A stretch of 59,837 nucleotides of DNA, counting the filler. It is 4 parts of 4 records of this genome, joined end to end, with 100 filler letters (N's around TTAATTAATTAA, not from the genome) between each part and the next. Parts side by side here need not be neighbours in the genome. Positions count along the whole stretch, not along the records: positions 5,270 to 24,030 come from SRR31156797_4161; 3 more parts are not named here. One strand, given 5' to 3'. Each line of letters opens with the position of its first letter. Positions within the stretch are counted from its first letter, which is position 1. The notes below the pieces were generated by a model that did no database searches, was not told the DNA's origin, and saw only the letters and a program-made list of their open reading frames with translations. Positions 5,270 through 24,130 of this stretch are shown piece by piece. A program made the position numbers and the translations under genes.

Positions 5270-5298
5270 CGCGAGTTCGAGTCTCGTCGGCTCCGCCA
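5270..5298 (+). tRNA. 3' end of tRNA-Asp (att core, left end)
   Basis: CGCGAGTTCGAGTCTCGTCGGCTCCGCCA = T-arm with GTTCGA, acceptor strand and CCA; Asp identity comes from the overlapping fragment at 24001-24030. Confidence 0.85.
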
Positions 5299-5572: not shown

Positions 5573-5690
5573 AGGGGGACTTGGGGAACTTAGGGGGCAT
5601 TTTTTTAAAAAGTAATTCTAATTGGCAGATTAAATTACTAACATTTCATATCCTTTGAATATGTCCCTCAACTCCCTTTAGTCCCCCCCC
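5573..5690. other. Candidate replication origin: inverted 9-bp iteron triplets around an AT-rich core
   Basis: Left (+) AGGGGGACT TGGGGAACT TAGGGGGCA; right (-) GGGGGGACT AAAGGGAGT TGAGGGACA; central AGTAATT...AATTACT inverted repeat; overlaps the 3' end of the rep gene. Confidence 0.6.
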
Positions 5691-8394
5691 CTTTCCTGAT
5701 GACGCGCCAGACACCAGAGTTGCCCCGCTTTCGCTGTTCGCGAAGAATCTTCATTCCATCGCAGAAACGCCCCTGAACCCTCCTAAGCCATGTTCCAACC
5801 CGCTGAGGGTTAACAGTTCCACCATCTGCAAAATATTCATCTAAAAGACCCTGCAAAGGCTTTACTTTCATTTCGTCTGATTTAAGCACCTCAGACACAG
5901 AGACGGGCTTATCACCAAAAGCATCGAACCATGCAGACAAAACAGCTCTAAGCTGTATTAGCTCTGGATCATCTTCATATGCTCTCTCTATGCAGAGGAT
6001 AGGGTCAACCAGTGCAGGCCCATCGCAGTCAGAAAAAAAGTCCTTAATAGCCTCCTGCTCTGCAAGCCAGCAGACAGCAAGTCGTGCAGAATTAGACCAG
6101 TCTTTAAAGCTGGCAATCCCTCTATTCAACCGCAGCCCACTATGCATCGCAACACGAACGATGCACAGCGCAGCGTTAATCATCTGAAGCCTGTTGTCTC
6201 GGCAATATTCATCAGGCTCTAAATCGAATTCACGAGCCCATGGCTGTTCTGTGTCGGGACTAATTCGAATCTTAAAAATCCTTCGATTCAAATCGCCTGC
6301 AATATCCACGTTGTTTCCGGTCAGAACACAAAGACTATTCGTAGGAACATCAATTATCTTTCTCCCATACTTCGGACGACCAGAGAAAGTAGGGTTGGTA
6401 ATCCAGGCGCACAACTCGTTGCTCTTCCCCAGACGATCAATATTATCTACAATTATAGCTTTCCCGCCTTCGCGCCCAAACAGAAGCAATTCTTGGCGTA
6501 ACTCATTAGAATCAAGACTCAGCACAGAAGGCTTATCAAGACCACTTAGAATCCCCAAGCAGATCGCGAGAAGCGTCTTACCACTCCCGGCTGAATGTGA
6601 GTCCATAAAAAAAGCAGGGGCGGTAGGCAAAAGAGGCCTGAGGACTGCGGTAAAAACGGCTGCAAGCAACGCGCTTCTGTCATACGCTGTTTCGTATGGA
6701 AAATCCTTAAAGGGTTCCCATATTACAGAGAGCCCCCTCCTAAGAGCTCCTGCTGGCAGACTCTGCGGGTACTCCATATTTTCACAGGAATCATCTGTGA
6801 GAAAAACGCCTGTTTCAGCATCAAAGCCTTTGGCCTGTACAATTCTTTTCGATTTAGTTGAAAGCGCAGGCGCACCAATAACGCATCTTAACTCTGGAAA
6901 CTTTTTGTAAAAATCTCCTCCAACAATTCTTTCAGCTATTTGTGGAGGGACATTACATGGAACGTACTTTCCTTTAGCCCCGGACCGTTTCCAAGCGATA
7001 ATCTCATCAAGCAGATTTTGTAACCTGCACTGATCAAATGGAACAATCTCATCACCATCAACATAAACAAGCTCTCCTCCACGCTGAAAAACTGTTCCTA
7101 AATCCATCAGGATAGAAACCACTTCTCGTAAGTTCTCAGAGATATAGGCAGGAATTTCTCGAACAGTAGTCCTTTCTTCCAAAGAATAGACCACACCACC
7201 ACCTGCAAAAGAATGCAGCCGGATGGGCCTTTTATCACTGTATAGACATGCAACCCTGCAATCCGCCCCATCATCAGAATCAAACGGGTCATAAAAACGG
7301 CGTTCATGCCATTGCTTTGGATCGGACAATATCTCAGCTACTAAAATATCCTCTCCCTCCTCTGTTCGTAGAATAAAATCCTTACCAAGCTTCAATGTTT
7401 GAGCAGCGCAAAGAAATCCCCGCCTGATCTCTTCCCACCTTGCTTCTGTTTGCTCATCATCAGAAAGCAGACTGAAACGTTTTGCAGTCATTTTCTCTGC
7501 CCAATTGGCTCTCATCCGCTGAGCTTCGGCCTCAAGTGGAATTTTTGCTTCTCTGACCAGACTGTCATATTCCAGCACCTCATCCTTGTTTAAATCATGG
7601 ATATACTTTTGAGTATCAAAGGGTTCAGCATCCGGGTTGATCAGGATAGGCTTCTCTGGTCTTTGTTCAAGAGGATTAATACATACAGCTCCAGCGACAA
7701 GGTCCAAACGTTCCGGCTGAAAGACAGCAGCATCAATTAAGCCACGAACTAACAGAGTCCCTGCTTTACTTATTTTTATCCACCCTTCACCATTAAGCCA
7801 GCACCGCTGAAAAAAGGCGTTGCCAGCTCTAGGTATATCCAGTCCACTGGCAACAAGAACTAACACCCGCCAGCCTGTGCATCCGGTAAGCTGCTCTCCT
7901 GTTGCTTTGTTGTAAATAAAGCTGGAAGAACTTGGAAACACCACCATGGGGGCTTTCTTCAGGGCAGGATTTATTTCATAGAGTTTTTCAAGCAACTCTT
8001 CCGAGCAAAGGCCAGCACCACTAGGAAGATCGACATCAAGCATCCAGACAGCATTTCTTGAACGATACCTGAAATGAGCCCGGTCACGGGCAACAATGTC
8101 TTTCTTCTTACCCTCTTCAGCTTTCAGAGCCTTCTGAGTTACAACGTCAGCTTCGTCATAACGACACACACCATAGCAGAAAGCTTGAGTGTTCTGCATC
8201 TGCCCCAAGAGTTCTACAAGTTCACGGGGACCATGGACGAGTCTTTTTTGGACACGTCCATTAGTCATATGCCCCAGAAAATTTTTATGCAGCTTACCCT
8301 CAGGGGTGATAGAAAGCTCTTTTCCCAGTGGTCTATCAGAGGTGATTAAAGACAGAACAAATGAACTATCGATGGGTTTAGAATCACTATGCAT
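5668..8394 (-). CDS. Primase-helicase replication protein (AEP-like N-terminus, SF3-like P-loop C-terminus)
   Basis: N-terminal 'WMLDVD' DxD motif; C-terminal Walker A AGSGKT, Walker B IIVDN, motif C LTGNN; start moved to ATG 8394, which follows a purine-rich RBS and overlaps the upstream gene's end. Confidence 0.7.
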   Translation of the reverse strand: MHSDSKPIDSSFVLSLITSDRPLGKELSITPEGKLHKNFLGHMTNGRVQKRLVHGPRELVELLGQMQNTQAFCYGVCRYDEADVVTQKALKAEEGKKKDIVARDRAHFRYRSRNAVWMLDVDLPSGAGLCSEELLEKLYEINPALKKAPMVVFPSSSSFIYNKATGEQLTGCTGWRVLVLVASGLDIPRAGNAFFQRCWLNGEGWIKISKAGTLLVRGLIDAAVFQPERLDLVAGAVCINPLEQRPEKPILINPDAEPFDTQKYIHDLNKDEVLEYDSLVREAKIPLEAEAQRMRANWAEKMTAKRFSLLSDDEQTEARWEEIRRGFLCAAQTLKLGKDFILRTEEGEDILVAEILSDPKQWHERRFYDPFDSDDGADCRVACLYSDKRPIRLHSFAGGGVVYSLEERTTVREIPAYISENLREVVSILMDLGTVFQRGGELVYVDGDEIVPFDQCRLQNLLDEIIAWKRSGAKGKYVPCNVPPQIAERIVGGDFYKKFPELRCVIGAPALSTKSKRIVQAKGFDAETGVFLTDDSCENMEYPQSLPAGALRRGLSVIWEPFKDFPYETAYDRSALLAAVFTAVLRPLLPTAPAFFMDSHSAGSGKTLLAICLGILSGLDKPSVLSLDSNELRQELLLFGREGGKAIIVDNIDRLGKSNELCAWITNPTFSGRPKYGRKIIDVPTNSLCVLTGNNVDIAGDLNRRIFKIRISPDTEQPWAREFDLEPDEYCRDNRLQMINAALCIVRVAMHSGLRLNRGIASFKDWSNSARLAVCWLAEQEAIKDFFSDCDGPALVDPILCIERAYEDDPELIQLRAVLSAWFDAFGDKPVSVSEVLKSDEMKVKPLQGLLDEYFADGGTVNPQRVGTWLRRVQGRFCDGMKILREQRKRGNSGVWRVIRKGGGTKGS

Positions 8395-8590
8395 CGTTCC
8401 GCCCCCTTCTTTCAGGGTCGATACGGCAGGCTTCAATATATGCGTCTAAGTCTTCGCGGCGATACCGGACGGCACCACCTAATTTCAGGTAGGCAGGAGG
8501 AAGGCATTTAAACCTTCTCATTTGAAGGGTCTTCGGTGAAAGGCCAAGATATTTGGCGGCCTGAATTTCATTCAGAACATTAGTAGACAT
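8387..8590 (-). CDS. AlpA/excisionase-like HTH protein
   Basis: 67 aa 'LNEIQAAKYLGLSPKTLQ...PAYLKLGGAVRYRREDLDAYI', a typical HTH_17/AlpA pattern, directly upstream of rep. Confidence 0.88.
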   Translation of the reverse strand: MSTNVLNEIQAAKYLGLSPKTLQMRRFKCLPPAYLKLGGAVRYRREDLDAYIEACRIDPERRGRNDA

Positions 8591-8764: not shown

Positions 8765-9610
8765 TCATTTCTGGTTTTTATTCTTTTTCTCGCATTGCTT
8801 TAGTTCAATTCCATGCTTTTTTAAAAGTCTATATCCTTCCTCACGCCAGTCAGCCATTAGGCTATGCTTTATTTTTCCTTTTTGTCGAACCGCGCATATT
8901 TTTCCCATATCCTGCCTGTCTGCTCTTTCTTCTACCTCATTTAAAATCTCCTTATTGGGCATGCACTTACTCCACTGGGCTGCGACTAGAATATTTCTTC
9001 GCTCGTTACCCTTCAGCGGTCTCCCATTTATTTCCCCTTCATCAACAATCCCCAAACACAGGGTTATATTCTTATCTTGATCCGAATTTGTATCCACGCC
9101 TTTGATTTCATCCCTTACAAGCTCAGAGACCTCATCGACCTTAAACGCCCAAGTGTGGATTGGCTGCTTCTCATTAAAATCAACCGCAACGGCATTCTTT
9201 GGAATCCTGCGTGTTACATATTTCATCAAAGGATTCAAAATCCTTTTGGAATATACCCCCTCAAATTCATTAAGAAAATAAAAAAACTCCTCTCTATACG
9301 TAGATTTCGTATATTGCTGGGAGGATGCTGTGCGCTGCATGAATGTGTCAAAAATTAATTTTAACGCTCTGTAGTCAAGATCTTCAAGTTGATCCCTATC
9401 TTTGTCCCAGTACAAATTTAACCAAGTCGTGGCCTGCCCTTCGTTTTCAAAATAAAAAACACGCTCACAACTATTCAGATCGACAATAGGAATTCGGTTT
9501 AAGCCAAAGTAAGCTGGCAGTCCTTCCCGGACCAATTCACCAAGGTGCACTTCATCCCAGTTGTATAACTCCATAAGCTTTTTGCCAGAAACATATTCAC
9601 CAGCCATCAC
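8765..9610 (-). CDS. Hypothetical element protein
   Basis: 281-aa ORF co-oriented with xis and rep; no recognised motif. Confidence 0.65.
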   Translation of the reverse strand: MMAGEYVSGKKLMELYNWDEVHLGELVREGLPAYFGLNRIPIVDLNSCERVFYFENEGQATTWLNLYWDKDRDQLEDLDYRALKLIFDTFMQRTASSQQYTKSTYREEFFYFLNEFEGVYSKRILNPLMKYVTRRIPKNAVAVDFNEKQPIHTWAFKVDEVSELVRDEIKGVDTNSDQDKNITLCLGIVDEGEINGRPLKGNERRNILVAAQWSKCMPNKEILNEVEERADRQDMGKICAVRQKGKIKHSLMADWREEGYRLLKKHGIELKQCEKKNKNQK

Positions 9611-10023
9611 GCCCCCACAAATTTCAAATAATTCTAAAAAGTATGACTTTTGTTAACTTGGCAGAATCTACCGAAATATTATGGGATTATCTATCCCGAA
9701 AACTTCAAGGAATTAAAAAATCAAAAGAATCAACGTCGACAAAGTGTAATATACAATAGGGACGTTAAATTTATAAAGACAGGAGAAGAGGTATTACCAC
9801 TCATAAGCAGGCGGTCAATTTACAACTGATCTGCTCATACTTAATAAAGGTAGAAACCAAGAGATACTCTACAGCATAAGACTGGTGTTTCGTTCTGTTT
9901 TTTTAAAAAAAATTGCTAAGCAGAAAAAAAGAACAAGCATAACTCTTGTCCCTCTTTATAATAGAAGCCCAACAATAGAGTAAGAACACCTATGAACCAT
10001 GTCGTTGCTAACAAAATTATGAT

Positions 10024-13000
10024 CTAGATACTTATTCTATACACCGACATCTTTTTAAACCCATTAGAGAAGCTTTCCTTTGAAAATGCTGCAGGACGAA
10101 CATACCAAACTTTAGAGACTTTTCTTTTTACGGATAAAACAGCAGCAGCCACAGCTTGAATCTTTGAACCTGTCAAAGCCAATTCCACATTGGAACCTTC
10201 ATGGACATATTGATGCCTATAATATTTATCTAGATCACCAACTGCAATTTCTAAATCACTTGTTTGTGTTTTGCTGATTGTTACATTTTGAAATGTATTA
10301 GAAATTACCCCAGCAGAGATTTTAGCCAACCTAGCTCTAGGACTACTACTATTGGAGTAAAGCAAATTAAGGCTGTCATAATCTCTAAAATCAAGCATTG
10401 AAAATAATCGCTGATATTTTGGAGAGACAAATGAAATCAAAGACCGCCCACGGGTTTCATCGCTTTCGTTATTTAAAAGCAAGACGGGATCATACGGCGT
10501 CTCTTCACCTGTAGCGAGAGCTGCTACTCTATCCAGAATTTGATATGAATCAATATTTTTTTCAGCAGAAAGCACACCGTCAATAGACTCCTGTAAAGGG
10601 TAATACTCACTTGCTTCTCCGTAACCAATAAACACTTCACCATATAGGAGAAGTTGATTCCTTACAGAATTAAATATAACAGGCTTTGCAAGACCTGAAA
10701 CATCTATAAGACCACGATCACCTAAATCTATATTATTTAAAAATTCATCAGAGTAGTTAACCACATCAACGTTAGCACCACTCCATGAATTTAAAATTTC
10801 ATTCTTGAAACCTGTTAAAGGGTATTCAAAAGCGTAAACTTGATTAGGAAGAACGTTAGCGGCTAACAATTTATTAGACTCAAGTGTTCTTTCTTCAAAA
10901 CCTAGCCCTGTTAAAACAGAACTAATATTAGCATCATGAAGGCTATTTAAAGGCAATCTATCTATCGAAAAGTTAAAACCAGCAGTACCTATAATATTTG
11001 TTTGACCACTTTGCTGAGGAGAGGGATTATGAGTAAATAACGATTTTTGAACTAAGGCTGGGGTTGCATATTCAGCATTAATATTTTCAATCTCTTCTAC
11101 TTGGCTGTATTGCTCATCATCCACAATAGTCTCGACGCCGCCTAAATTACGAAGAAGAATTTCTTTTCCTTCATCCGGGTGGTCAAGCCACTGCTGAAGA
11201 ACTTTTCCAGAAAGCTCGAATCTATCTCTATCAGAAAGCCCAATATAATTTGCCAAGCCAAACAGTTTTCTAAAACTCAGCTTAAACTGCAAATCAGGTT
11301 CTGAATGAAGAGTCTTAGTCCGTGCTGCCCCACCTGAATACACAAACACGCCCGCATCAATAAGCTCTCTAAGCTGTTCTGTTTGATTCTGAATTTCTTT
11401 AGAATCGCTTGTAGAAATTCTTACATAAATCAAATTATACTGTCTAATTCTCTTAGGGTTTTCTTTATATGATTGAACCATCAGAGAATAAGAGGCATCA
11501 GCAAAGGACTTCGCGCAATCTCTAAGTTTAGTATTCCTACGGTTTAACATGAACAATCTTTTTGAGCTCATATCTTGGAAACATTGAGATTGATCTAAGT
11601 CGGAAATAGGAACATCTCCTTTAAAACACCGTAATATTTCTTCATATAACTTTACGACATCTCCAATTTCTCCAACACAGACATGTGTCAGGCACGCAAT
11701 GCCTCGATACACTCTTTTTCTAGCTGCAGACGTTTTACGAGATTGAGCAATTTCACGGGCAATATCTTCAAGCGGAACTGTTCCAAGTAAAGTTTCAGGA
11801 CTAAAACTGGGGTGGGAGATATAATATCGAGAACGATAATTTAAAATATCACATAAGAACTTTTTGCCTTTCTTTTTAAGCATTTTTAATACATCGGCAC
11901 CAAGATCAAAATGATCAACGTCACGCCCCTCCATGATAGGATGTAACCTTCCCTGAGATCGCAACCCTAATTCAATTGTTTGCCACTCAGACGTAATCTT
12001 AAATGCGCAGTCCTGATGGCTAAACAATAGCATAGTTAAAACATTTCCTACTCTCGTTAAATTTAGAAAACGAGTTGAAACATCATCAAGCAAAAACAGA
12101 ACCTTAACATTACTCCAAATTGGACTGCAGCGTTTAATACTAACAGCAAGGCTTGCGAACAAATCACTTGGGGTGTGGTTTGATATAATTGAACTCTCAG
12201 GTTTTGCGACTTCGACAGCAAGCCTTTCAAGAGCCCTTTCCAGCCCTTCTAAACTAAGCGTATTTTCCAATATTTGAGCTTCACTAATATGAGCTGCGAC
12301 GCACTCTGCTATCTCTTTATGAGCACCCGTATTTACACTGTTCCTGTCAATATCCTTTAAATGCAACATCCCTCTTACAGCTTGCAGCGCATAGTATATA
12401 TAAATTTTTGTGACTTTTGATTCAATTTTACTGAGAGAATCCGACCTCAAATCAACAATTTTATTCGCAGAAACAAAAAAACCAACAAAGCTATCAGAGC
12501 TTAATCTTTTAAGAATATCAGCAGAGGATTCACCTTGAAGTTCAGCAGCCCTAGCGTGAAACTCTAATGACCTTAACAAATGGGTCTTTCCGCATCCACG
12601 CATACCAGTAATAATTTGAGGTCCGGGCTGAGAAATCCTGCGTACCCAACGGCCATCAGGGTCAACAAGCAGGGAAGGGATGTCCCATGGCTCTAAAGAT
12701 TGGGCATTGTAATGATCGCTGAAATTTTTTAAAACCAGCCCCTTTCGCCAAGGAGCCCATAAATGGCTGGCCCTGTATACAGTTTCTTTAATTTTCTCTA
12801 TTAATAAATCATATTCAAGATCCCGCATCTTTTCAGGGTCATGAATAAGAAGCTGAACGACCTCCTGCAACGCTAAGGCAATGCGATACTCCCTATCATC
12901 TGTATCTTCTAGTGCGCCTGTCACCCGATCAATCATCACATTTATATGCTCAGCTATGCGTCGCAAATCGCCCAATCGCCCACATTCAATATCGCTTCTA

Positions 13001-13644
13001 CTAATACCGTCTGTAGACCCCAAATCAATAGCCATAACTTTTATACTATCACAAATAGCGTCACTACGACGGGTCTCTTTAGGTAATGTCTCAACAATTA
13101 TATTTTCTGCATGCAAATCATTATGGTGAAGTTTTTTACAGGAGAACTCTTTATGTATCTTCAACAAGTCAATGGCGACCTGCGCAACCATCTCAATACT
13201 TGCTTTAGCTTCAAAAAAATCCTTTAAGAGAACTCCATTTACATACTGCAATTCAGCAATGTAACAATCAATCTTACTATTATCTTTATCAGAAAAAGCA
13301 ACAACACCTTCTGTAGGGTGCACTATCTTAATTATATGTTCACTGTCTTTAGCTGCTTTTGCATGGTTTAAGCACTCGGCTTTGAAGTCTTTCTCAAAAA
13401 ATTCATACACATTTTTAGGAATAATCTTAATTACACAGAGTGTTTCAAGAAACTCTTTTTCAGCAATATATACAGAGCCAAAAAAACCTCTCGAAAGAGG
13501 CCTGATGATCTTATAATTATCGATAACCTTTGGAGGAAAATCTAAACAGAAGCTGTATTTACGATTACAAGTGTCACAACGATCTGAAAGTTGCTTTTCA
13601 CTTTTGTGATGCCTTGGACAAAACATACAACAATAATAGCTCAT
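10024..13644 (-). CDS. Multidomain protein: Zn-ribbon, Ser/Thr kinase, P-loop ATPase (ORC/CDC6-like), C-terminal alpha/beta domain
   Basis: CxxC...CxxC; kinase motifs LSRGFFGSVY, VIK, HNDLHAEN, IDLG; Walker A GMRGCGKT, Walker B LFLLDD; C-terminal GLGFEERT / IDVSGLAKP / LALTGSK; start moved to ATG 13644 after a GGGGGAG RBS. Confidence 0.8.
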   Translation of the reverse strand: MSYYCCMFCPRHHKSEKQLSDRCDTCNRKYSFCLDFPPKVIDNYKIIRPLSRGFFGSVYIAEKEFLETLCVIKIIPKNVYEFFEKDFKAECLNHAKAAKDSEHIIKIVHPTEGVVAFSDKDNSKIDCYIAELQYVNGVLLKDFFEAKASIEMVAQVAIDLLKIHKEFSCKKLHHNDLHAENIIVETLPKETRRSDAICDSIKVMAIDLGSTDGISRSDIECGRLGDLRRIAEHINVMIDRVTGALEDTDDREYRIALALQEVVQLLIHDPEKMRDLEYDLLIEKIKETVYRASHLWAPWRKGLVLKNFSDHYNAQSLEPWDIPSLLVDPDGRWVRRISQPGPQIITGMRGCGKTHLLRSLEFHARAAELQGESSADILKRLSSDSFVGFFVSANKIVDLRSDSLSKIESKVTKIYIYYALQAVRGMLHLKDIDRNSVNTGAHKEIAECVAAHISEAQILENTLSLEGLERALERLAVEVAKPESSIISNHTPSDLFASLAVSIKRCSPIWSNVKVLFLLDDVSTRFLNLTRVGNVLTMLLFSHQDCAFKITSEWQTIELGLRSQGRLHPIMEGRDVDHFDLGADVLKMLKKKGKKFLCDILNYRSRYYISHPSFSPETLLGTVPLEDIAREIAQSRKTSAARKRVYRGIACLTHVCVGEIGDVVKLYEEILRCFKGDVPISDLDQSQCFQDMSSKRLFMLNRRNTKLRDCAKSFADASYSLMVQSYKENPKRIRQYNLIYVRISTSDSKEIQNQTEQLRELIDAGVFVYSGGAARTKTLHSEPDLQFKLSFRKLFGLANYIGLSDRDRFELSGKVLQQWLDHPDEGKEILLRNLGGVETIVDDEQYSQVEEIENINAEYATPALVQKSLFTHNPSPQQSGQTNIIGTAGFNFSIDRLPLNSLHDANISSVLTGLGFEERTLESNKLLAANVLPNQVYAFEYPLTGFKNEILNSWSGANVDVVNYSDEFLNNIDLGDRGLIDVSGLAKPVIFNSVRNQLLLYGEVFIGYGEASEYYPLQESIDGVLSAEKNIDSYQILDRVAALATGEETPYDPVLLLNNESDETRGRSLISFVSPKYQRLFSMLDFRDYDSLNLLYSNSSSPRARLAKISAGVISNTFQNVTISKTQTSDLEIAVGDLDKYYRHQYVHEGSNVELALTGSKIQAVAAAVLSVKRKVSKVWYVRPAAFSKESFSNGFKKMSVYRISI

Positions 13645-13749
13645 ACTCCCCCCGTCTGTATGAAGAACCATATAAACCAATAGATACTATAACTACAAAG
13701 CAAGCAGAGACCATGTTAATAAAAAAACATCTCTCTATGTGCACCTAAC

Positions 13750-15579
13750 TCATTCATATGAAATAAAATCGACTCCAATCCGCGAATTATAGCTTCCTTT
13801 ACTGTGAAGTAGCCTGTCGGCATATTCACTCCGCAACTTACCAAGCACCTCAACGTCAATGGATTCAAACTTTAAATCTGCACGACACGCACCTGCTTTA
13901 CACTTTTCCCTAGTGACCATTTGCAGAGTAGCTTTTCCGTCTTCCAGCAAGCCGGTATTGCAGGAATAAAAAACATAAGGATGAGGATTCTCACCAGCTC
14001 CGTGAAGTATCCGAAAAGGAGTAGGATTTCCTTCGTAATTTAAAAAGATATGGTTGCATTGTGTTGCATCCGCTAGTGCTTGTTTAACTTCGTCATCTTT
14101 CGTCACACACTCAAGCCTAAGAGCCTCAAAGTAAGCTGCAGGATATAAGTTTTGCCTATACCCAGAATCTTTTTTACGGGGAAACATATCGCATGACGGC
14201 GAAGCGCATACCCAAAATCTTTTTTTGCCCGTCACAGACTTAAACACCACGCCGTTGGTAAAAAATAATCCGGAGTAATCAGTGCTGCACAGAAAGGCAT
14301 TCAACGCAAGTATGATGGAACCATCGCTTAACTCAGAACTCAATTTTTCATGTTTTTTAGCCTTAACGATGGAACTTTCGTCACCGGCATTGATAAAGCT
14401 GAATAGTTTTTCACCAAACTCGCCGACAGTTTGGTGTACTGATTCTGAAAAGGTAGCAAAGGCCCTTTGAGTTAAATCTATGACTCGATGTGAAATTTCC
14501 AGCTTCGACTCAGTATTAGAAGGATGTTCAGACTCAAGAGTGTGATACAGCAAAGCCGCACGAGTTTTTTCATCCCCGAAAATATTTTTTAAAACATCCG
14601 CATTTGCAGAACGAAACGAGGTAATACCTTTCCTCATCAAGAGACTAATTGGTGAAGGCCTATAATCCTTCAAACACTCTTTCAGCTCCTCAACTAGGCC
14701 GTCTATCGAATCATTGGCATTGTCTTCTGTCTTTTGAACAATTGCCACGAATACGTTCTTGCCTCTAATCCACTTACGACCATCTTCCATTGAGGAACAT
14801 TCCAGCTCAGAAACATTACTACTCAGGTTCAGCTCAGGTAAAGAAATTACATCATAGGTTTCAACAAGATGGCTTTCAAAAGCGCATCTGACAATATTTT
14901 CCCTTTTCTCCTCAGCGAACTTGTCTTTTACACCAAGTGAATTAGCTAATGATCCTAGCGACCTGTTATTTAATGAAAAATAACCTAAAAGATTGTCTTT
15001 TATCTCTTGTGCATCTATTTTCGCAGCTTCACGCTCAATAGCTTTTGAAAAACCGTCACTGATACTACCTCGCAAAACTCTCGCTACGACTGGCGCAACT
15101 TCTGAAGGAGATTTTGTCGTATATAAAACAACAAGATTAAATCTCTCTGTCTCATCCAAAACCTTCAATATTTGAAGAGACTTAGCTTCAGACCTTGTCT
15201 CAGGCTCCAAAATATAATCTAAAACAATCAAATCAGGTTTATTAATAAAATCCTTCGACTGATTTAAAATATTCGTCGGGTTTGACTCAACATCAAAAAT
15301 AAACCCACTTTGTCGACATGACGATGTCAGGCTGTAAGCGCGATCAAACGAGCTGGGATCTTCATTTAAAGGTTCAGCCGATTTTTCGTCACCGTGTAAT
15401 AGAGCTTGAGAAGCAAGGTCACCTTCAAGATCAAGCTCATCTTCAAAATCTTCACCTAAATCATCCTCAGGGTCAGCCGATTCCAAAAGATCTGCGTAGC
15501 TCGGAAAGTTATCATCGATAAACAAAACACTTTTAATTGGATCAATAAAAACATCCTGAACAAGATCATTAATCGGCAT
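13750..15579 (-). CDS. Receiver-domain protein with long uncharacterised C-terminal region
   Basis: VLFIDD, DLIVLDY (phosphoacceptor Asp) and VVLYT receiver motifs; start overlaps the end of the upstream kinase gene. Confidence 0.8.
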   Translation of the reverse strand: MPINDLVQDVFIDPIKSVLFIDDNFPSYADLLESADPEDDLGEDFEDELDLEGDLASQALLHGDEKSAEPLNEDPSSFDRAYSLTSSCRQSGFIFDVESNPTNILNQSKDFINKPDLIVLDYILEPETRSEAKSLQILKVLDETERFNLVVLYTTKSPSEVAPVVARVLRGSISDGFSKAIEREAAKIDAQEIKDNLLGYFSLNNRSLGSLANSLGVKDKFAEEKRENIVRCAFESHLVETYDVISLPELNLSSNVSELECSSMEDGRKWIRGKNVFVAIVQKTEDNANDSIDGLVEELKECLKDYRPSPISLLMRKGITSFRSANADVLKNIFGDEKTRAALLYHTLESEHPSNTESKLEISHRVIDLTQRAFATFSESVHQTVGEFGEKLFSFINAGDESSIVKAKKHEKLSSELSDGSIILALNAFLCSTDYSGLFFTNGVVFKSVTGKKRFWVCASPSCDMFPRKKDSGYRQNLYPAAYFEALRLECVTKDDEVKQALADATQCNHIFLNYEGNPTPFRILHGAGENPHPYVFYSCNTGLLEDGKATLQMVTREKCKAGACRADLKFESIDVEVLGKLRSEYADRLLHSKGSYNSRIGVDFISYE

Positions 15580-18514
15580 TCTCTACTCCCCGAAATTCAA
15601 TAATAAAATTTGCCCCTTCACAAACTTTAGGATCACCAGCAACTGCATATCTAATTTTATGATGAGCTACAGCTAAATTTTGCTTGCAAAGGTATAACCC
15701 CACCCCGCGCCCATTGGATCTACGGGTAAAGAAAAGTTCAAATAAACGTGGTTCATCATCAGGATCAACACCAGGACCGGAATCAGCGACGACCGCTTTC
15801 CCATCTACAAAATCCAACACCACCTTTCGCTCATCTCCACGTTGGACCCAGTAGATGGCGTTGTTAACCAAGTTTATAAACGTAGGATAAATTCTAGAGG
15901 GGAGATCTTTAATCCTAAGACTCTTGAAAGAAGAAGTAACATTAAATGTAATTCTATTATCTCTCAGAATACGCTCAAAAAAATTCTCCAGATATTCACC
16001 TATCTCAGCACCTGTTATGTTAACCCTGCTCCGATAAGCTGTAATCTTCATCGGGGTTAAAAAACGAAGTCTATCTATAAGTGCACGATGAGCTTCATAT
16101 GCAAGTTTATAACTGGATAACTGCCGCACCTTTAAAGGCAACTTATTCATATACCGTGAAACCTGAGACTCTAAATCCTGTAATTCATGCCCAATAATTT
16201 CAACACTGATTCCAAGTTGCGCAACAGCATTCAGCTGTTCAACCTTTTGTTCCAATATGACACGCTCTTGATCTGCCAACAAAAAGGCTCCCTCAATGTC
16301 CACCCCGCTTGCAATCTGATCTAAGCTGTTAAAAACTCCTGAATATTTTATTTCAAAATCCTCTCTCATCTCATTGTATTTACTATCGAGCATATCAAGA
16401 ATTCTCGGCAAGCCCTCTCTATCCTTTAGCAGCTCTATATAATCGATAGCAGACTTTCTGTATGCCTTCCGATCATCAAAGGCTTCGCTGTGCCATGACT
16501 CGGAAAGAGAATTTAGATGATCCGTAATTAACTTGAGAGATTTTGAAACTTGTTTGGATAACTTTGTTTCATTGCTTTGAAACTTATGAATTGCCACATC
16601 TTTAGGTTCGCCAAACAGCCCTTTAGCTTCACAGTCTGAAACTTTTTTCTTGAGTTCAGTTAGAATAAGGCAGAACTCGGTATATGCGTCCCTGTAATCT
16701 CTGTACTGGATCTCCTTCTTGCCCAGTTGGCTAGGTAAGGGAGGCAACATTAGCTTCTCTTTTAAATCATCAAGCCTTTCGATCTCAGTACGGATTAATG
16801 TAAGATCATACTTATCGCGTCTGTCTATAGCATCTAAAAGTGCAGCTGGTTGATCTTCAATGGCCTCCCGGCATTCAATCATTAGCGGAAAATTATCATT
16901 TAAAACCTTAGCAAAATTCTTCTTTCTACGCTTTCGTGCTCGCTCGGCTGCTGCTGCCTGTAATTTATTTCGCTTCTCAATTTCAGGCATTTCTTGCTTT
17001 CGAATAACGGACTGTCTACCGAAATATTGATATGCTGCTTCAATCAATACCCCTTCAACCAATCGCACCATTTCACGACGAGCTTTATTATCAACAAGGC
17101 CTTCACGCCCTGCTTTGTCTTTCAAATTTGGATTATCAGTTCGAGTAAATGCCATTCTCCCGAAAGACTTTCTATGAGAGAAAAAAAATGTTCCGGCATT
17201 TTTGGTTCTCCGTGACTCAATACTGAAAAGATCTGCTCCCGGCCTCCCATAAGGCATAACCCTCAGGCCATCTCTATATACTAAAATGCCACCGTAAAGA
17301 TCACTCTTCCCTTGAATTGAATCCCACTCAACTCTTGAATGAGTAGACTTCGCACCAGCTTTAGTAGCCTCAAATGAAGCAATACAGAATTTAAACGGTC
17401 CGACATAATCTGATTTTTGCAACTTTCTAAAGCCGAGCGCTGGAAATTCTTTCTTGCCTCGATACTTCCCAAAAGCTTGAACTTCACAGTGGAAATTACC
17501 TTTACCGTCAAATTCTCCGTATACCCAGTGTTCTAAAGACTTAAAATCATCAATACCGAAATAGCTTTCATAATCTAAAATTGTGTGCGGGGCTTTCCCC
17601 CTATAATGGACCTGTACTGCATATTTGAAATTAATTGACTCATCTGCATATGGATCTGAAAAACCTGTCAGAGTTTGTTGAAGATTTTCTCTTACAGCTA
17701 CCGCATCTTCATCTTCATGATCTTTCATGACCAATGAATTCAACTCACGGTACGGAGCAATTCCGAAAAGGGCGGTCCCGTGCATTTCGTCTTCATCTAC
17801 ATCATTCATTATGGAACGCCATGCATGTAGGTGAAATGAACTTATCACTTCTTCATGATTAAAATCTGTAATAGCAGTGTATGTATCCTTTTCTTTGCCC
17901 TGACTTTTTTCCAACTTGGTAAAACTGCTCCATGCGCCTGCAAGTCTGACTTCTCTTTCGTTTTTGGCATCAAAATCCCATTTCAAATTGGACTTTAAAG
18001 TTTCAAACATTCCCGGAACAAGTAGTTGTAATTCTTTTAAATCATCAAATTCAATTATTGGAAATTCAATATCAGATATATTTAAATAAGGATTTTCAAA
18101 AAAACGCCAATCAATAAGAGCTGCGGTAAACTTTGTCTCTACTTTCTTAGTCACAACAAGAGTTATAGGGGCTAAAAATGCAGTTGACAGACGACCGATT
18201 CCTTTTTCTCCCTGCTTCTCCCTCGGCTCAAGGTCGAACAAAGTCGTCTTATCGTTAAATGAATCAGCCTTACTCTCTGTGCCAACAACCAACCACCAAT
18301 CGAGAAACTCTTGGGCACTCATGCCGCAGCCGTTATCGATCACTGCAGCAATAGGTGTATCACCCTCATAAATATGAAGCTCCACCTTACGAGCATAAGC
18401 ATCGTATGCATTCTTCCATAACTCACTGACCGCAGTAGGGGCGTCAGCAATCTGGCCCCTGCCTAAATGGTCAATAGTCCTCGCCTTAGTTTGAAAACTT
18501 GCCACTCTTTGCAT
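15569..18514 (-). CDS. MORC/MutL-like GHKL ATPase fused via coiled coil to a histidine kinase
   Basis: N-terminal GHKL motifs ELWKNAYDA, DNGCGM, GEKGIGRL; middle YRDGLRVMPYG / DKAGREGL; C-terminal H-box IIGHEL, NLVNNA, DSGPGV, GRGVGL; no TM segment. Confidence 0.88.
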   Translation of the reverse strand: MQRVASFQTKARTIDHLGRGQIADAPTAVSELWKNAYDAYARKVELHIYEGDTPIAAVIDNGCGMSAQEFLDWWLVVGTESKADSFNDKTTLFDLEPREKQGEKGIGRLSTAFLAPITLVVTKKVETKFTAALIDWRFFENPYLNISDIEFPIIEFDDLKELQLLVPGMFETLKSNLKWDFDAKNEREVRLAGAWSSFTKLEKSQGKEKDTYTAITDFNHEEVISSFHLHAWRSIMNDVDEDEMHGTALFGIAPYRELNSLVMKDHEDEDAVAVRENLQQTLTGFSDPYADESINFKYAVQVHYRGKAPHTILDYESYFGIDDFKSLEHWVYGEFDGKGNFHCEVQAFGKYRGKKEFPALGFRKLQKSDYVGPFKFCIASFEATKAGAKSTHSRVEWDSIQGKSDLYGGILVYRDGLRVMPYGRPGADLFSIESRRTKNAGTFFFSHRKSFGRMAFTRTDNPNLKDKAGREGLVDNKARREMVRLVEGVLIEAAYQYFGRQSVIRKQEMPEIEKRNKLQAAAAERARKRRKKNFAKVLNDNFPLMIECREAIEDQPAALLDAIDRRDKYDLTLIRTEIERLDDLKEKLMLPPLPSQLGKKEIQYRDYRDAYTEFCLILTELKKKVSDCEAKGLFGEPKDVAIHKFQSNETKLSKQVSKSLKLITDHLNSLSESWHSEAFDDRKAYRKSAIDYIELLKDREGLPRILDMLDSKYNEMREDFEIKYSGVFNSLDQIASGVDIEGAFLLADQERVILEQKVEQLNAVAQLGISVEIIGHELQDLESQVSRYMNKLPLKVRQLSSYKLAYEAHRALIDRLRFLTPMKITAYRSRVNITGAEIGEYLENFFERILRDNRITFNVTSSFKSLRIKDLPSRIYPTFINLVNNAIYWVQRGDERKVVLDFVDGKAVVADSGPGVDPDDEPRLFELFFTRRSNGRGVGLYLCKQNLAVAHHKIRYAVAGDPKVCEGANFIIEFRGVENAD

Positions 18515-18569
18515 AAGAGCCTCTATAAGTGTTTTTTATATTTTTTTGAAGAGAATAATCACAGTGTGA

Positions 18570-19670
18570 TTATTTTATGGAGCGTAGGTAGTCAGATATA
18601 TTTCGCAAAAGGACTTTTCCTAATTCATATGGGACAGCATTTCCGACCTGAATCCCACCAGCAGTAAGGCCGCCTTCGAAGACAAAGCTGTCGGGAAAAG
18701 TTTGAAATCTGGCTGCATGACGTATCGTTATTCCGTGATGCTCTGTAGGATGCAGAAAGCGTCCTTTGGATGGATTTGTACAACCGGTTGTTATTGTCGG
18801 ACCTAACTTTTCAGGATCAATCCTGCCGTACACGTCTTTATGACCGGCGTAACCGTTTTGATGGCAGGGAAGCACGCGGTTAGATTCAGTACGGCTTCCG
18901 CCGTTTAGAGGAGTGCTTTTAAAAACCTCGATAAGTTCCTTCGTATGGTTCATGTGGATGTTATTGGGGTCCTTTTCACTCAAAGGCTCTCTGAAAACAA
19001 CTTTCGATGTAACCCAAGAAGGCTTATCTAAATTTAAAACTTCGTCAGATGAAGGGGAGAAATGTGTTGGGGCAGGGGGCCACTCATGTTTCTGCTCAGG
19101 TTCTTTTTTGAAACCTAAAATAAAAACTCTTTTTCTGTTTTGAGGGACACCGTAATCTCTGGCATTGAGTAAAACAGGATCGCACACATGATAACCGGCC
19201 TGTCGGCCCAGCTCATAAAATTTATCTACATATTTCTCATGTCGCTTCCAGAGCATACCAGCTACGTTTTCAACAATAAAAACTTTCGGGGCGAGAGCTT
19301 CAACAAACCTGAAGTACTGCAAAAGAAGCTCGTTTCGGGGATCATCAACTCCGGCATCCTTAAAACGATGCGAAGAAAAACCTTGGCAGGGCGGACCGCC
19401 CATTAAAAGATCAAGCTCCCCTCTCTTTAAATCAATATCTTTCATTACAGACTCAGGAGAAAGCTCACAAATATCATCCTGAAACAATCTTGGCCCAGAA
19501 GGATTCTCTCTTATAAAATTATTCTCATATGTCGAGCATGCGTAATGATAGTGCTCCACAGCAGCAAGCACGGAAAAGCCAGAGTTTACGGCAGCTAGGG
19601 AAAATCCACCTGCTCCGCTGAAAAGGTCAATTGCGGTAAAACGGCCTGAAGGCTTACTTTTTAAACTCAT
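18570..19670 (-). CDS. dcm: DNA (cytosine-5)-methyltransferase
   Basis: Motifs DLFSGAGG, GGPPCQGFS, ENV, PQNRKR, QVGNAVP. Confidence 0.95.
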   Translation of the reverse strand: MSLKSKPSGRFTAIDLFSGAGGFSLAAVNSGFSVLAAVEHYHYACSTYENNFIRENPSGPRLFQDDICELSPESVMKDIDLKRGELDLLMGGPPCQGFSSHRFKDAGVDDPRNELLLQYFRFVEALAPKVFIVENVAGMLWKRHEKYVDKFYELGRQAGYHVCDPVLLNARDYGVPQNRKRVFILGFKKEPEQKHEWPPAPTHFSPSSDEVLNLDKPSWVTSKVVFREPLSEKDPNNIHMNHTKELIEVFKSTPLNGGSRTESNRVLPCHQNGYAGHKDVYGRIDPEKLGPTITTGCTNPSKGRFLHPTEHHGITIRHAARFQTFPDSFVFEGGLTAGGIQVGNAVPYELGKVLLRNISDYLRSIK

Positions 19671-19772
19671 TGATTTAACTGTAAAATTTTAAATATAAAC
19701 GGGAACTGCGTCAGCTAAACAGGATAACGTTTAGATACAGAAAAATCAATATCTACAGTTTGCAATAACCAA

Positions 19773-20180
19773 CTATAAACTAAGCTTTTTTCTAAGTCTT
19801 TCGGCAAGGGAGTTCATATCTTTAAGCTCGCACGTCCAGACAACAATCACTTTCCAGCCTAAATTCCTGAGCTTTTGCTGGACGACTCTATCTCTTTCAA
19901 TATTCTTCTGAAATTTATTTTCCCAAAACTCTGTGTTTGTTTTGGGAGTCGAGGCTTTGTTGCACCCTTGATGACGGTGCCAATAGCAACCATGCACGAA
20001 TATTACTGTTTTGTATTTGGGTAAAACAATATCCGGCTTTCCGGGCAAATCCTTTCTGTGAAGTCGAAAACGATACCCCATTCTGTGCAGCAAAGACCGC
20101 ACGAGTATTTCCGGCTTAGTATTCTTTGACCGGACCCTGCTCATATTCCAGCTTCGTTTTTCAGGGGAAAGATGATCCAT
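19773..20180 (-). CDS. vsr: Very short patch repair endonuclease
   Basis: MDHLSPEKRSWNMSRVRSKNTKPE, LPGKPD, FVHGCYWH, NIERD...LGWKVIVVW. Confidence 0.96.
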   Translation of the reverse strand: MDHLSPEKRSWNMSRVRSKNTKPEILVRSLLHRMGYRFRLHRKDLPGKPDIVLPKYKTVIFVHGCYWHRHQGCNKASTPKTNTEFWENKFQKNIERDRVVQQKLRNLGWKVIVVWTCELKDMNSLAERLRKKLSL

Positions 20181-20222
20181 ACGACAGCCACAGTAGGCTA
20201 AAAGATTCTCTCTATAGAGGGG

Positions 20223-20435
20223 CTACACAGAATCCACTGAATAAAGGTCTTCAACAGAGCATCTAAGCTCCTCAGCAATTTTACAGAGTGTATCCAGCCG
20301 ACAGGACGCAATTCTCTTGTCTCTGGCTCTTGAAACAGTCTCCACAGCTAATCCGGTTTTATCTGCGAGCACACGTATGCTGACTTGAGCTTTTTCCATT
20401 AATTCTGGAACCTTGCTCTCTATTTTTAGACGCAT
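20223..20435 (-). CDS. Cro/C1-type HTH regulator (possible controller protein)
   Basis: 'SIRVLADKTGLAVETVSR...LDTLCKIAEELRCSVEDL'; first gene of the vsr-dcm cluster; start could be 20435 or 20450. Confidence 0.82.
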   Translation of the reverse strand: MRLKIESKVPELMEKAQVSIRVLADKTGLAVETVSRARDKRIASCRLDTLCKIAEELRCSVEDLYSVDSV

Positions 20436-20471
20436 ACGCCAAAGTAGCATGTATGCGTTGCACCGTCTGTC

Positions 20472-20544: not shown

Positions 20545-21162
20545 ATGCGCACTCACTTAATACCCGGCATCCTTCTGGGCGTAATATGCAGCTTCATCAT
20601 TGCAGCATGTTCGCAGGCTCCATATCCGACCACATACGGCCTTACATCGCAGAGAATGATGCAGGCCGCCGGACACTGGCAGATTCTAGCAGAGGACACA
20701 GCAAACAAGATTTCTGAAAAAGTAGCTCCCGGCAGCAAGCTTTACCTCAGCAAGAACAGCGACGAACCCTTCTATGCTTACTTTGCAGACTTTTTAGAGC
20801 AGGAACTTGTAAACAAGGATTACGTCCTGTGTGAATCACGTTCTGCGGACTGCCTGCCAGTGCTCATCAATGCGCGAGTCTTGCAGCACGGAGAGAGAAT
20901 TCTGGATGTGTACCCCGGACTGATACCTGTTGTTACAGGTACTGTCGTTAGCTCTCTGGCTGTGGCGGGAGGAGTTTCCACAGGAGGGCTTCCGCAGAAC
21001 GAAGTGCTGGTTTCCATCAGGATAGTGAATGAAGGCAAAACTGTACTAGCTGAAAACAATGTCTATTACGTAGGCGAGGATGAAGTCTGGCACTACGACA
21101 AATACCCGGATGCAGCAGCAACAGGAATCCCCAGCAAAACCATGCAGATTGTCGGAGAATAA
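20545..21162 (+). CDS. Putative lipoprotein
   Basis: Hydrophobic signal with lipobox IAAC; AGAGG RBS. Confidence 0.7.
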   Translation: MRTHLIPGILLGVICSFIIAACSQAPYPTTYGLTSQRMMQAAGHWQILAEDTANKISEKVAPGSKLYLSKNSDEPFYAYFADFLEQELVNKDYVLCESRSADCLPVLINARVLQHGERILDVYPGLIPVVTGTVVSSLAVAGGVSTGGLPQNEVLVSIRIVNEGKTVLAENNVYYVGEDEVWHYDKYPDAAATGIPSKTMQIVGE

Positions 21163-21163
21163 A

Positions 21164-22602: not shown

Positions 22603-23787
22603 CTATTTACAATCCTCCAGATTCACAACCTTCTCCGACTTCGACTCCCCGCCATTCTCCAGACCGTTAAAAATGTCCCCGGCAACAGCGGAGGCATCCT
22701 GTAAAGCTTTATCCCGCAGATGGGCATATCTTTGAGTCATAGCCGCACTTTTGTGGGTCATGAGCTTCTGGAGGGTGTACATATTCACCTTACCAGAGCT
22801 GGCCAGTATAGAGGCGTAGACATGCCGCAGGCCGTGCAGAGCCCTAAAATCAGCAGGTAATCCAGCACGCTCTTTAATCCGTTTTGTCTGGTGGTGTGCG
22901 TCTGTGCGTTGCAGCCCTCCCCTGCCGGGAAAGACAAACTCGCTCCCGGTCCGCTCATGCTCCATCAGAAGCGCACGAGCTGCATCATTTAAAGGGATTT
23001 TCTGACTCTTACCCCCTTTGGGAGCTTCAATATAAATAAACCCAGTATCAAAATTAATATGCTTCCATTTCAGCTTGAAAAGCTCCCCTCTACGCATCCC
23101 GGTATAAAGAGCCATCTTCATAAGGTTGGCAACCTGTCGGTTAGAGTCTTCGTCAATGGCTTTTAATAAAGCTTGAAGCTCCTCTGGTTCTAATTCATCC
23201 GTTTTAACATTATCAACCTTAGGGAGCTCGATATAAAGAACAGACGGTTCAGGCTCAGGACATAATCCCCTCTTTACCCCAAAATTTATAATTCGACGAA
23301 GCAGAGCAAGGACATGCTTCACTGTCTGCGGGGCTTTAGTTTTCAGCAACAGTTTCCTGACCCCATCAACATCCAGCGTGACAATTTCAGCTGGAACCTT
23401 GTTTCCGAATACAGGCTTAATATGCTTTTGGAATCTGTTATCGTCTACACGTAGACCTTTATTATCAATGCGCTGGCTATAATATTCCAGCCATATCCTT
23501 TCTATAGTCCAACGGCCTTTCCGTGCTTCCTTATCAGCAGCTATTTTAGCTCTGTGCTCAGAATTGGATGGCTGATCGCCATCAATACGCAGGACCCGCA
23601 AACGCGATGCTTTAGCGGCTGTCATGTTATCCTGAAATTGACGTCCGGCTTTTTCTTCAACCTGCTTACCATCGCGCCTGTAACGGATATAGAAAACTTT
23701 TTCGGGCTTTCCTGTTGCAGGATGCTTGCCTTCAATAAAGTAGACGCCCTTGTAACCATCAATTTTAACTCTCTTATTCTTTGCCAT
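22603..23787 (-). CDS. int: Tyrosine recombinase/integrase
   Basis: YTGMRRGE (R), PKGGK (K), HGLRH (HxxR), MTH...MTQRY (H, Y); start moved to ATG 23787 after an AGAGGTG RBS; adjacent to the att core. Confidence 0.95.
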   Translation of the reverse strand: MAKNKRVKIDGYKGVYFIEGKHPATGKPEKVFYIRYRRDGKQVEEKAGRQFQDNMTAAKASRLRVLRIDGDQPSNSEHRAKIAADKEARKGRWTIERIWLEYYSQRIDNKGLRVDDNRFQKHIKPVFGNKVPAEIVTLDVDGVRKLLLKTKAPQTVKHVLALLRRIINFGVKRGLCPEPEPSVLYIELPKVDNVKTDELEPEELQALLKAIDEDSNRQVANLMKMALYTGMRRGELFKLKWKHINFDTGFIYIEAPKGGKSQKIPLNDAARALLMEHERTGSEFVFPGRGGLQRTDAHHQTKRIKERAGLPADFRALHGLRHVYASILASSGKVNMYTLQKLMTHKSAAMTQRYAHLRDKALQDASAVAGDIFNGLENGGESKSEKVVNLEDCK

Positions 23788-23800
23788 AGCAGCACCTCTT

Positions 23801-23886
23801 TGAGCTTTCCCCCACAAGGTCCCCCTCATTTTCCCCACGGGTCCCCCACAAGAAAAATGAGCTTTACCCCACGCTATCCCCCACAC
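23801..23886. repeat. Six CCCC(A/T)C direct repeats in three pairs; probable integrase arm-type sites (right arm)
   Basis: TTTCCCCCACAA, GTCCCCCTCA, TTCCCCACGG, GTCCCCCACAA, TACCCCACGC, ATCCCCCACAC; TGAGCTTT(C/A)CCCCAC occurs twice. Confidence 0.65.
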
Positions 23887-24030: not shown

Positions 24031-24130
24031 NNNNNNNNNNNNNNNNNNNNNNNNNNNNNNNNNNNNNNNNNNNNTTAATTAATTAANNNNNNNNNNNNNN
24101 NNNNNNNNNNNNNNNNNNNNNNNNNNNNNN
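24031..24130. other. Artificial contig linker
   Basis: N-run + TTAATTAATTAA + N-run. Confidence 0.98.

Follow-up and report, generated by a model that had tools for sequence, protein, structure and literature searches.

Organization of the locus

The window analysed here is a stretch of 59,837 nucleotides, filler included, in which contigs are joined by N linkers (5170-5269, 24031-24130 and 51992-52091), and its contig at 5270-24030 carries six co-oriented minus-strand open reading frames (ORFs) that form a candidate defence cassette. In order, these encode a helix-turn-helix (HTH) regulator, a Vsr endonuclease, a C5 cytosine DNA methylase, a dual-GHKL ATPase/histidine kinase, a receiver protein and a protein kinase fused to an ATPase (the kinase-ATPase) (Table 1). 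The first four genes are separated by gaps of 42, 102 and 55 bp, the histidine kinase and receiver genes overlap by 11 bp, and 105 bp precede the kinase-ATPase (69 bp to an upstream TTG). A sequence-only reading of this DNA had reported these genes with their order, gaps and overlap, all of which are present as described. It had also proposed a methylase-linked, defence-type locus with an intact His–Asp relay, and the motifs agree: the catalytic residues are intact across the locus (methylase Cys95, histidine kinase His776, the Asp and Lys residues of the receiver, and the kinase and Walker residues of the kinase-ATPase), and those of the histidine kinase, receiver and kinase-ATPase are conserved among homologues.

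Table 1. Positions in the window of the cassette genes, their domains and the features of the element that carries them
Feature	Position	Strand	Basis or remark
Zn-ribbon/Ser-Thr kinase/ORC-CDC6-like AAA+ (Arg in P-loop)/putative CARF protein	10024..13680	-	likely ATG 13644; 1218 aa
609-aa Response_reg_2 protein (receiver), whole gene	13750-15579	-	PF19192, 58.8 bits vs cut-off 27
Receiver domain, residues ~14-306 with insertions, Asp121	14662..15579	-	PF19192; AF2; structural match
C-terminal receiver domain, residues ~437-603, candidate effector	13771..14271	-	predicted MazF/PemK/Kid/CcdB fold with insertion
paraMORC-type GHKL ATPase + HEF_HK + histidine-kinase catalytic domain, His776	15569..18514	-	HATPase_c_3, HEF_HK, HATPase_c above cut-off
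C5 cytosine DNA methyltransferase, catalytic Cys95	18570..19670	-	PF00145 E 1e-61; motifs located
Vsr very-short-patch repair endonuclease	19773..20180	-	Pfam Vsr E 1.5e-32; TIGR00632 above cut-off
Cro/C1 (XRE-type) HTH regulator	20223..20450	-	HTH_26 E 1e-10; second ATG at 20435, the end given by the sequence-only reading
Tyrosine integrase of element	22603..23886	-	Phage_integrase E 2e-30; phrog_1
Excisionase-like HTH	8387-8590	-	PHROG match (phrog_66/phrog_16593 for excisionase and primase genes)
Primase-like gene	5668-8436	-	satellite-like replication module with excisionase-like gene, 5668..8590
Attachment-site half: copy of tRNA 3' part with GTC anticodon	24001..24030	+	sequence; tRNA 5' half continues here in other contigs
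Other attachment-site half: tRNA 3' end through CCA	5270..5298	+	sequence; loose ends at 5298-5299

No restriction endonuclease was found beside the methylase by Pfam, NCBIfam or PADLOC, and no HNH match was found by Pfam among the 13 element proteins scanned. Matches to REase_II (weak) and BbrUII (far below cut-off) are confined to the N-terminal GHKL domain of the histidine kinase (residues 11-135). The claim that the locus has no recognizable restriction nuclease therefore holds for these searches but needs qualifying, because the fold of a nuclease toxin is predicted in the receiver, as described below.

The HTH gene is a possible controller resembling AbrR of the Ambrosia system, and it may not be a fixed member of the cassette: no tblastn match to it was obtained in 19 other receiver loci, and a related cassette in the RNA library X3 has a loose end at 20180.

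The histidine kinase and receiver core

The third, fourth and fifth genes match PF00145, PF13589 with PF19191 and PF02518, and PF19192, respectively, and on this domain content the methylase, the paraMORC-type histidine kinase and the receiver are identified as a HEF_HK/Response_reg_2 cassette. His776 is kept in all 11 aligned kinases, together with all of the other kinase boxes. The receiver protein contains Asp22, Asp23, Asp121, Thr154 and Lys283, with Asp22, Asp121 and Lys283 present in 150/150 of the aligned homologues (150 proteins out of 1428 matches); at an E of 1e-30 or lower, the family comprises 535 clusters of sequences. Structures of the receiver protein were predicted with AlphaFold 2 (AF2), both at full length and for residues 410-609 alone. 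The full-length model (pLDDT 90.6) consists of a receiver domain at residues 14-306, a helical middle (~307-430) and a C-terminal beta domain, and the top structural match of the receiver domain is itself a receiver domain (Z 10.1).

A divergent branch of the family has kinases that are 26-30% identical and receivers that escape BLAST, yet it retains the motifs of the C-terminal domain. In the five loci of this branch that were examined (L222-224, L256 and L257), the receiver is the final co-oriented gene in every case. Among eight receiver loci on viral contigs, whose flanks are uneven, none carries the kinase-ATPase, and Vsr was found by tblastn in two. In the part of the published survey of these cassettes that was available, the three genes of the core are likewise followed, in several supplementary rows, by a housekeeping gene on the opposite strand (PMC8011034). 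Because of these three lines of evidence, the best model is that the methylase/histidine kinase/receiver core stands alone as a self-contained layer.

In L257 the receiver gene is present as two ORFs with a 4-base overlap (L257:1703-3423, minus strand; a 216-aa receiver and a 357-aa product with the C-terminal motifs), which is either a natural split or a frameshift. In three further loci, GHKL proteins of 730-805 aa precede genes of 376-414 aa (L249:3251-4495, L250:6404-7645 and L255:6370-7500) for which neither a Pfam match nor a match to the receiver profile was found; these pairs are further branches, possibly with outputs of another kind.

A predicted toxin fold at the receiver C-terminus

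The second conserved block of the receiver family spans residues 427-604 in the 150-protein alignment. Residues 410-609 folded alone gave an AF2 model with a pLDDT of 93.4, and in a structure search of 48,161 chains ranks 1-12 were all toxins of toxin–antitoxin systems (Z 7.6-5.0), with the first other fold at Z 4.0. Eight of these 12 matches are titled MazF, CcdB, Kid or CptIN (CptN), and the other four, titled just toxin or endoribonuclease, are presumably MazF/PemK proteins. The best match is MazF-mt3 (Z 7.6, root-mean-square deviation 3.3 Å, 100 of 105 residues aligned), CcdB reaches Z 6.8, and ToxN and AbiQ rank lower (Z 3.1 and 3.0). Foldseek with the single domain placed E. coli MazF in ranks 1-4 (probability 0.82-0.96, E 0.012-0.040), and with the full-length model it returned weak MazF rows; the MazF reading was drafted from motifs after these full-length rows and before the single-domain search. 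The sequence-only reading had raised the idea of a nuclease hidden in this C-terminus, and what the models reveal there is a predicted MazF/CcdB-type toxin fold with moderate scores.

The domain also carries a conserved set of residues. Asn427, Gly443, Cys463 and Arg600 are invariant in 150/150 sequences, Arg583 and Gly602 are present in 149/150, Asp464 in 143/150 and Tyr586 in 140/150.

Several observations weigh against a toxin assignment. The best Z of 7.6 lies below 8, the limit of the tool below which a match may be a mere common arrangement, and no match of the single domain in Foldseek reaches E 1e-3; sequence identity over the toxin-fold match is 6-12%, and the C-terminal domain has ~60 extra residues. 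A comparison by hhalign with 30 PemK proteins gave a probability of 0.5%, there is no PemK match in Pfam and no sequence-profile similarity of the domain to any PDB chain was found. The columns that match the Arg and Thr which we take to be the catalytic pair of MazF vary, by hand alignment only (Arg in 6%, Thr column variable; the window protein has Arg454), and RNase activity of the domain is therefore doubtful. A standalone, antitoxin-paired form of the domain is not established: 16 short homologues may be fragments, and unnamed clusters of 118-184 aa in the Atlas (at 0.90-0.91) are a lead only for such forms. A homodimer prediction for the domain, in which the alignment was not used, scored 0.03 and weighs neither way. 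No paper joining Response_reg_2 to MazF or PemK was found in the literature searched, the coverage of which was incomplete. Taken together, the models make it probable that the domain has a MazF/CcdB fold; given that fold, the case for toxin activity is evenly balanced.

The kinase-ATPase and its linkage

The kinase-ATPase matches the PADLOC profile CARF6--CARF_STK_AAA with 1309 bits over positions 1-1185 of 1187. Its Pfam matches are ORC-CDC6-like PF24389 and a sub-threshold Pkinase. All 47 aligned kinase-ATPases keep Lys85, Glu102, Asp188, Asn193, Asp219, the Walker A Lys365 and the Walker B Asp532-533, and the Zn-ribbon, kinase and Arg-P-loop AAA+ motifs occur in one chain in 44-47 of these sequences. 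The CARF region is the less secure part of this architecture: it rests on the PADLOC profile and otherwise on a Csa3_N match in one of the 47 members (E 0.0036), and no PDB match supporting a CARF domain was found.

Linkage was counted in 160 kinase-ATPase loci, namely the best 80 of 124 in genomes and the best 80 of 190 in metagenomes, not all of which are independent. Within 10 kb of the kinase-ATPase, a C5 methylase was found in 123/160, a partner of ~400 aa in 122/160, Vsr in 87/160 and the histidine kinase/receiver pair in 11/160; in a twelfth locus (L084) the receiver is truncated at the contig end. Where each flank extends for at least 5 kb (75 loci), the corresponding numbers are 67, 54, 47 and 7. 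The kinase-ATPase is thus linked elsewhere to the methylase/histidine kinase/receiver block, as had been anticipated, and two of these loci, L079 and L022 (Mesorhizobium), share the gene order of the window (methylase, histidine kinase, receiver, kinase-ATPase), while others are inverted or rearranged. In a FastTree phylogeny of 139 full-length rows including the window (132 distinct), in which the window row forms a long branch, the receiver label switches seven times. The kinase-ATPase was found in 0/45 viral contigs, and a single-sequence locus search gave 0/33 candidates. Its other neighbours include MORC-Z1-DUF4420-AIPR, UvrD-PDDEXK, ABC ATPase, PglZ-BrxL and helicase-MZB genes. A Loktanella plasmid (L162:8995-15366) has the CARF-kinase next to a complete type II system, made up of a C5 methylase and a restriction enzyme annotated as NaeI-family.

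With the methylases of 7/10 other loci that have the histidine kinase/receiver pair, the window methylase shares 51-56% identity. Its median identity to the 108 other methylases is 36% (13 reach at least 48%), and with the methylases next to the two nearest relatives of the kinase-ATPase it shares 35-39%.

These data indicate that the kinase-ATPase generally accompanies C5 methylases and that it joined the histidine kinase/receiver cassette repeatedly. Since the methylase is found in 67/75 loci and the receiver in 7/75, with seven changes on the tree and varied defence partners, it is a methylase-linked add-on and not the dedicated effector of the relay, and the six-gene combination is an occasional pairing only. 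The proposal that the kinase-ATPase occupies the slot of a nuclease as the effector of the relay is not supported by these counts, in which 149/160 loci lack the pair in the DNA examined, nor by the finding that the receiver has a candidate effector domain of its own. Some coupling is possible all the same, as the kinase-ATPase recurs with the pair, including in one starred four-member clade. The receiver occurs in 3/401 whole Pseudomonadota genomes, rarer than its 11/160 beside the kinase-ATPase, but the two figures amount to no formal test, because both genes live in defence islands.

The ~400-aa partner has no Pfam match and matches pyrimidine-nucleoside phosphorylases (1brw, E 2e-43). It is present in L004:8805-10010 and in 121 other loci, usually directly upstream of the CARF-kinase. 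In thymidine phosphorylase a His before the STGG motif is catalytic, and Arg, Ser and Lys residues bind the pyrimidine. In the partner the Lys-His that precedes STGG is lost (His in 1/113), while the Arg, Ser and Lys are invariant; this loss of the catalytic His with retention of the pyrimidine-binding residues suggests that the partner binds a nucleoside and is not an enzyme. Among loci without the partner, three carry a dCTP-deaminase-like gene (L026, L110 and L155) and three a thymidylate-kinase-like gene (L023, L028 and L065). The window has no trace of the partner in six frames (best E 2.2) and, by Pfam scan, neither a dCTP-deaminase-like nor a thymidylate-kinase-like gene. The C-terminal part of the receiver was considered as the missing partner and rejected, the partner being a homologue of pyrimidine-nucleoside phosphorylases. 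The partner is scarcer beside the histidine kinase/receiver pair (3/9 versus 107/131, Fisher p 0.003), but on five independent pairs the trend is not significant by sign test (median p 0.25). It is a speculative idea that the partner and CARF-kinase form a module which senses methyl-cytosine breakdown products freed when a phage degrades marked host DNA. No paper joining the CARF-kinase to a phosphorylase was found in the same incomplete literature search.

The element and its surroundings

The cassette had been read as the cargo of an integrative element, and the contig bears this out, with integrase, excisionase-like and primase-like genes and tRNA pieces at both of its ends. One DNA run contains this contig in full and is probably its source. 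We read the fragment with the GTC anticodon as tRNA-Asp; ARAGORN found no whole tRNA in the window. Because of the tRNA pieces and these genes, the contig is read as an 18.8-kb satellite-like element that probably integrated in tRNA-Asp. The GC content is ~27% before 5170, 36-48% inside the element and mostly 31-39% beyond 24130, and because the N linkers join contigs of different make-up the genes flanking the element are not its genomic neighbours; at 24288-26123, for example, a contig other than that of the element carries a type IX secretion tail gene. The top plasmid matches of the integrase come from Lawsonia (42% identity) and the nearest named homologue of the receiver is from Desulfovibrio sp. 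(44%), homologues which point to a possible host among the Desulfovibrionales.

The element has further genes. A pentapeptide-repeat protein (21893-22564, minus strand) has weak HalA and Qnr-family matches, all far below cut-off; a link of this gene to CcdB and gyrase was considered and dropped, because the gene did not turn up in any of 19 other receiver loci. Two genes for lipoprotein-like products, of which one has a FlgO domain, separate the HTH gene from the integrase side at 20545-21655 (plus strand). A 281-aa ORF (8765-9610, minus strand) that lies upstream of the excisionase-like gene has no Pfam, NCBIfam, PADLOC or PHROG match and was not found in the 160 kinase-ATPase loci.

Two microbial-mat RNA libraries (X2 and X3, from one study) contain contigs that are ~99% identical over much of 9981-15620 and ~92-93% identical over parts of 18609-19835; loose ends occur at 9981 and at 20180 (the latter in X3). 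One contig bridges the junction of the receiver and kinase-ATPase genes, near-identical and with other flanks. These contigs cover parts of the cassette, leaving out most of the histidine kinase gene, and bear on presence, not on transcription or absence; a related strain thus has the cassette with other flanks. Promoter and terminator scans are at chance level (23 versus 26.1 and 10 versus 8.3).

Proposed mechanism and alternatives

We propose, as a model about as likely right as wrong, that the locus is a defence cassette of two layers, linked to a methylase and carried by an element integrated in a tRNA gene, with a toxin-fold effector released by the relay. For the families concerned, it is established that C5 methylases mark self DNA, that Vsr repairs the deamination of 5-methylcytosine (5mC) and that phosphate is transferred from His to Asp. 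In the first layer, the methylase and Vsr would perform these tasks, and the paraMORC GHKL ATPase would act on DNA and sense unmarked or foreign DNA or the loss of the mark. The ATPase would turn on the fused histidine kinase, and His776 would phosphorylate Asp121 of the receiver, both residues being present. Phosphorylation of Asp121 would release or dimerize the C-terminal domain of predicted MazF/CcdB fold, which might then stop infection by cutting RNA or by blocking an essential protein. The receiver would stand in for an antitoxin, and the fused domain may do what Ambrosia leaves to a separate HNH gene. The Zn-ribbon/kinase/AAA+/CARF protein would form the second layer; it is an accessory that moves among many different 5mC systems and was presumably grafted here without its phosphorylase-like partner. 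It would most likely sense a nucleotide or nucleoside signal, or an attack on the methylase system, and answer by protein phosphorylation, as a second guard parallel to the relay and not downstream of it. The anti-phage function is inferred by analogy with the sister system Ambrosia, in which protection from phage depends on the receiver Asp. A broader proposal, that Response_reg_2 proteins are phosphorylation-gated toxins with a catalytic set of their own (Cys-Asp and two Arg), checked by the fused receiver and fired by a methylation-reading MORC-type ATPase/histidine kinase, with a CARF-kinase that guards 5mC systems at large as backing in this locus, is tentative and on present evidence rather doubtful.

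It is somewhat unlikely, in our judgement, that the C-terminal domain adopts the MazF/CcdB fold, or just a comparable barrel, without being a toxin, and instead binds DNA, a nucleotide or a partner protein, in a regulated, restriction-like machine with cutting left to the MORC ATPase and Vsr or to an unrecognized or unlinked nuclease. Such a role would agree with the variation in the MazF catalytic columns and, as far as the available parts of the sources go, with GHKL ATPases acting alongside Vsr or nucleases fused to them (Iyer et al. 2008; PMC2292703), with the HNH genes that often adjoin these cassettes (PMC8011034) and with the action of Ambrosia by transcriptional control without evident host toxicity (bioRxiv 10.1101/2025.09.30.679545). 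However, the conserved polar set of Asn427, Cys463, Asp464, Arg583, Tyr586 and Arg600 looks like a functional site, and Vsr is missing from many loci, six of the eight on viral contigs by tblastn among them.

A different doubt concerns the second layer, since all six genes might form a single pathway in which the His–Asp relay switches on the kinase-ATPase as effector. The gene order shared with L079 and L022, the frequency of the receiver beside the kinase-ATPase relative to Pseudomonadota genomes, the scarcity of the phosphorylase-like partner beside the receiver and the near-identical junction on the mat-library contig with other flanks all speak for such coupling. The absence of the relay from 149 of the 160 kinase loci and of the kinase from the eight viral-contig relay loci, the variable order and orientation among the 11 loci with the pair and the failure of the partner-loss trend on independent pairs make this pathway quite improbable. 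Nor do we expect, on similar grounds of probability, that the cassette is mainly an addiction module, in which the toxin-fold effector is set off when the methylase is lost or diluted and kills cells that lose the element, with anti-phage activity absent or secondary. MazF, Kid and CcdB folds are classic maintenance toxins, Kid and CcdB are among the structural matches, and the cassette is carried by an integrative element that has genes for an integrase, an excisionase and a primase. Yet BREX-, DISARM- and MORC-type genes surround the kinase-ATPase, addiction would need less than a dedicated sensor ATPase with its relay, and the sister system Ambrosia is, in the available part of its report, anti-phage.

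If Response_reg_2 proteins are indeed phosphorylation-gated toxins, an effector would be assigned to hundreds of cassettes, and a restriction-type self mark would be linked directly to an arrest of the toxin–antitoxin type. A MazF/CcdB-type fold at the end of the receiver would mean that a two-component relay is wired straight to a toxin fold as the arm of methylation-based immunity. The toxin-fold domain may be the missing weapon of the widespread methylase/kinase/receiver cassette, to which the literature searched, again incompletely, assigns no output. The position of the CARF-kinase-ATPase beside the C5 methylases of many unrelated defence systems suggests a general guard of 5mC-based defence, and its neighbourhoods suggest a possible new CARF ligand.

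Comparison with known systems

The sequence-only reading had not recognized the combination as a named system, but its components are already in print. The sources cited in this section were available in part, and the statements on their content apply to those parts. The HEF_HK (PF19191)/Response_reg_2 (PF19192) cassette was described in 644 regions of 628 strains, many of them enterobacteria, with a kinase/receiver linkage of 91.6%, with C5 methylases and Vsr frequent beside it and with a second protein in which the receiver is the one known domain (Bellieny-Rabelo et al. 2021; PMC8011034). The window shares its domains, the methylase–kinase–receiver order, the Vsr often found in such cassettes and the intact His and Asp, whereas the kinase-ATPase neighbour of the window is not mentioned there. 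MazF and PemK have no occurrences in the main text, which names no output domain; the lack of 'Pkinase' in the supplement is uninformative, since this kinase scores below the Pfam cut-off.

The architecture of the kinase-ATPase corresponds to a family of Zn-ribbon, S/T/Y kinase, AAA+ (Arg in P-loop), CARF and winged HTH (wHTH) domains (Makarova et al. 2014; PMC4012209), with which the window protein shares the Zn-ribbon cysteines, the kinase residues, the Arg-containing P-loop and the full-length CARF6 profile. That description gives no link to a methylase or phosphorylase, and the window copy lacks the phosphorylase-like partner. In paraMORC restriction-modification operons (PMC2292703), a GHKL ATPase lies beside a cytosine methylase and Vsr on mobile DNA, as in the window; the window differs in having no superfamily 2 (SF2) helicase or nuclease of restriction-endonuclease fold and in having the histidine kinase in the slot of the C-terminal nuclease. 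The predicted fold of receiver residues ~437-603 is like that of MazF/PemK/Kid/CcdB and type III ToxN-like toxins, from which the domain differs in being fused behind a receiver, in the lack of a cognate antitoxin gene and in the apparent replacement of the catalytic pair.

Ambrosia (AbrR-A-B-C-D; van den Berg et al., bioRxiv 10.1101/2025.09.30.679545) is a validated anti-phage system that consists of an XRE regulator, an N6 methylase, a GHKL kinase, a receiver with a wHTH domain and an HNH protein. An XRE regulator, a methylase, a GHKL histidine kinase and a receiver in one cluster are common to both, whereas in the window the N6 methylase is replaced by a C5 methylase with Vsr, the 609-aa receiver ends in a beta barrel of predicted MazF-like fold, the separate HNH gene is absent and the CARF-kinase is added. 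By our own identification, 3/10 Pseudomonas-group regions examined (L248, L251 and L253) fit the description of Ambrosia; what these have in common with the window kinase is the N-terminal ATPase alone (32-37% over ~155 aa), and the 210-aa third gene of L248 has no profile similarity to the receiver family. The window cassette is thus a sister of the Ambrosia architecture. The locus as a whole is two known modules joined back to back beside a methylase and not one new relay, and what is new is the predicted fold of the receiver's C-terminal domain, not the six-gene combination.

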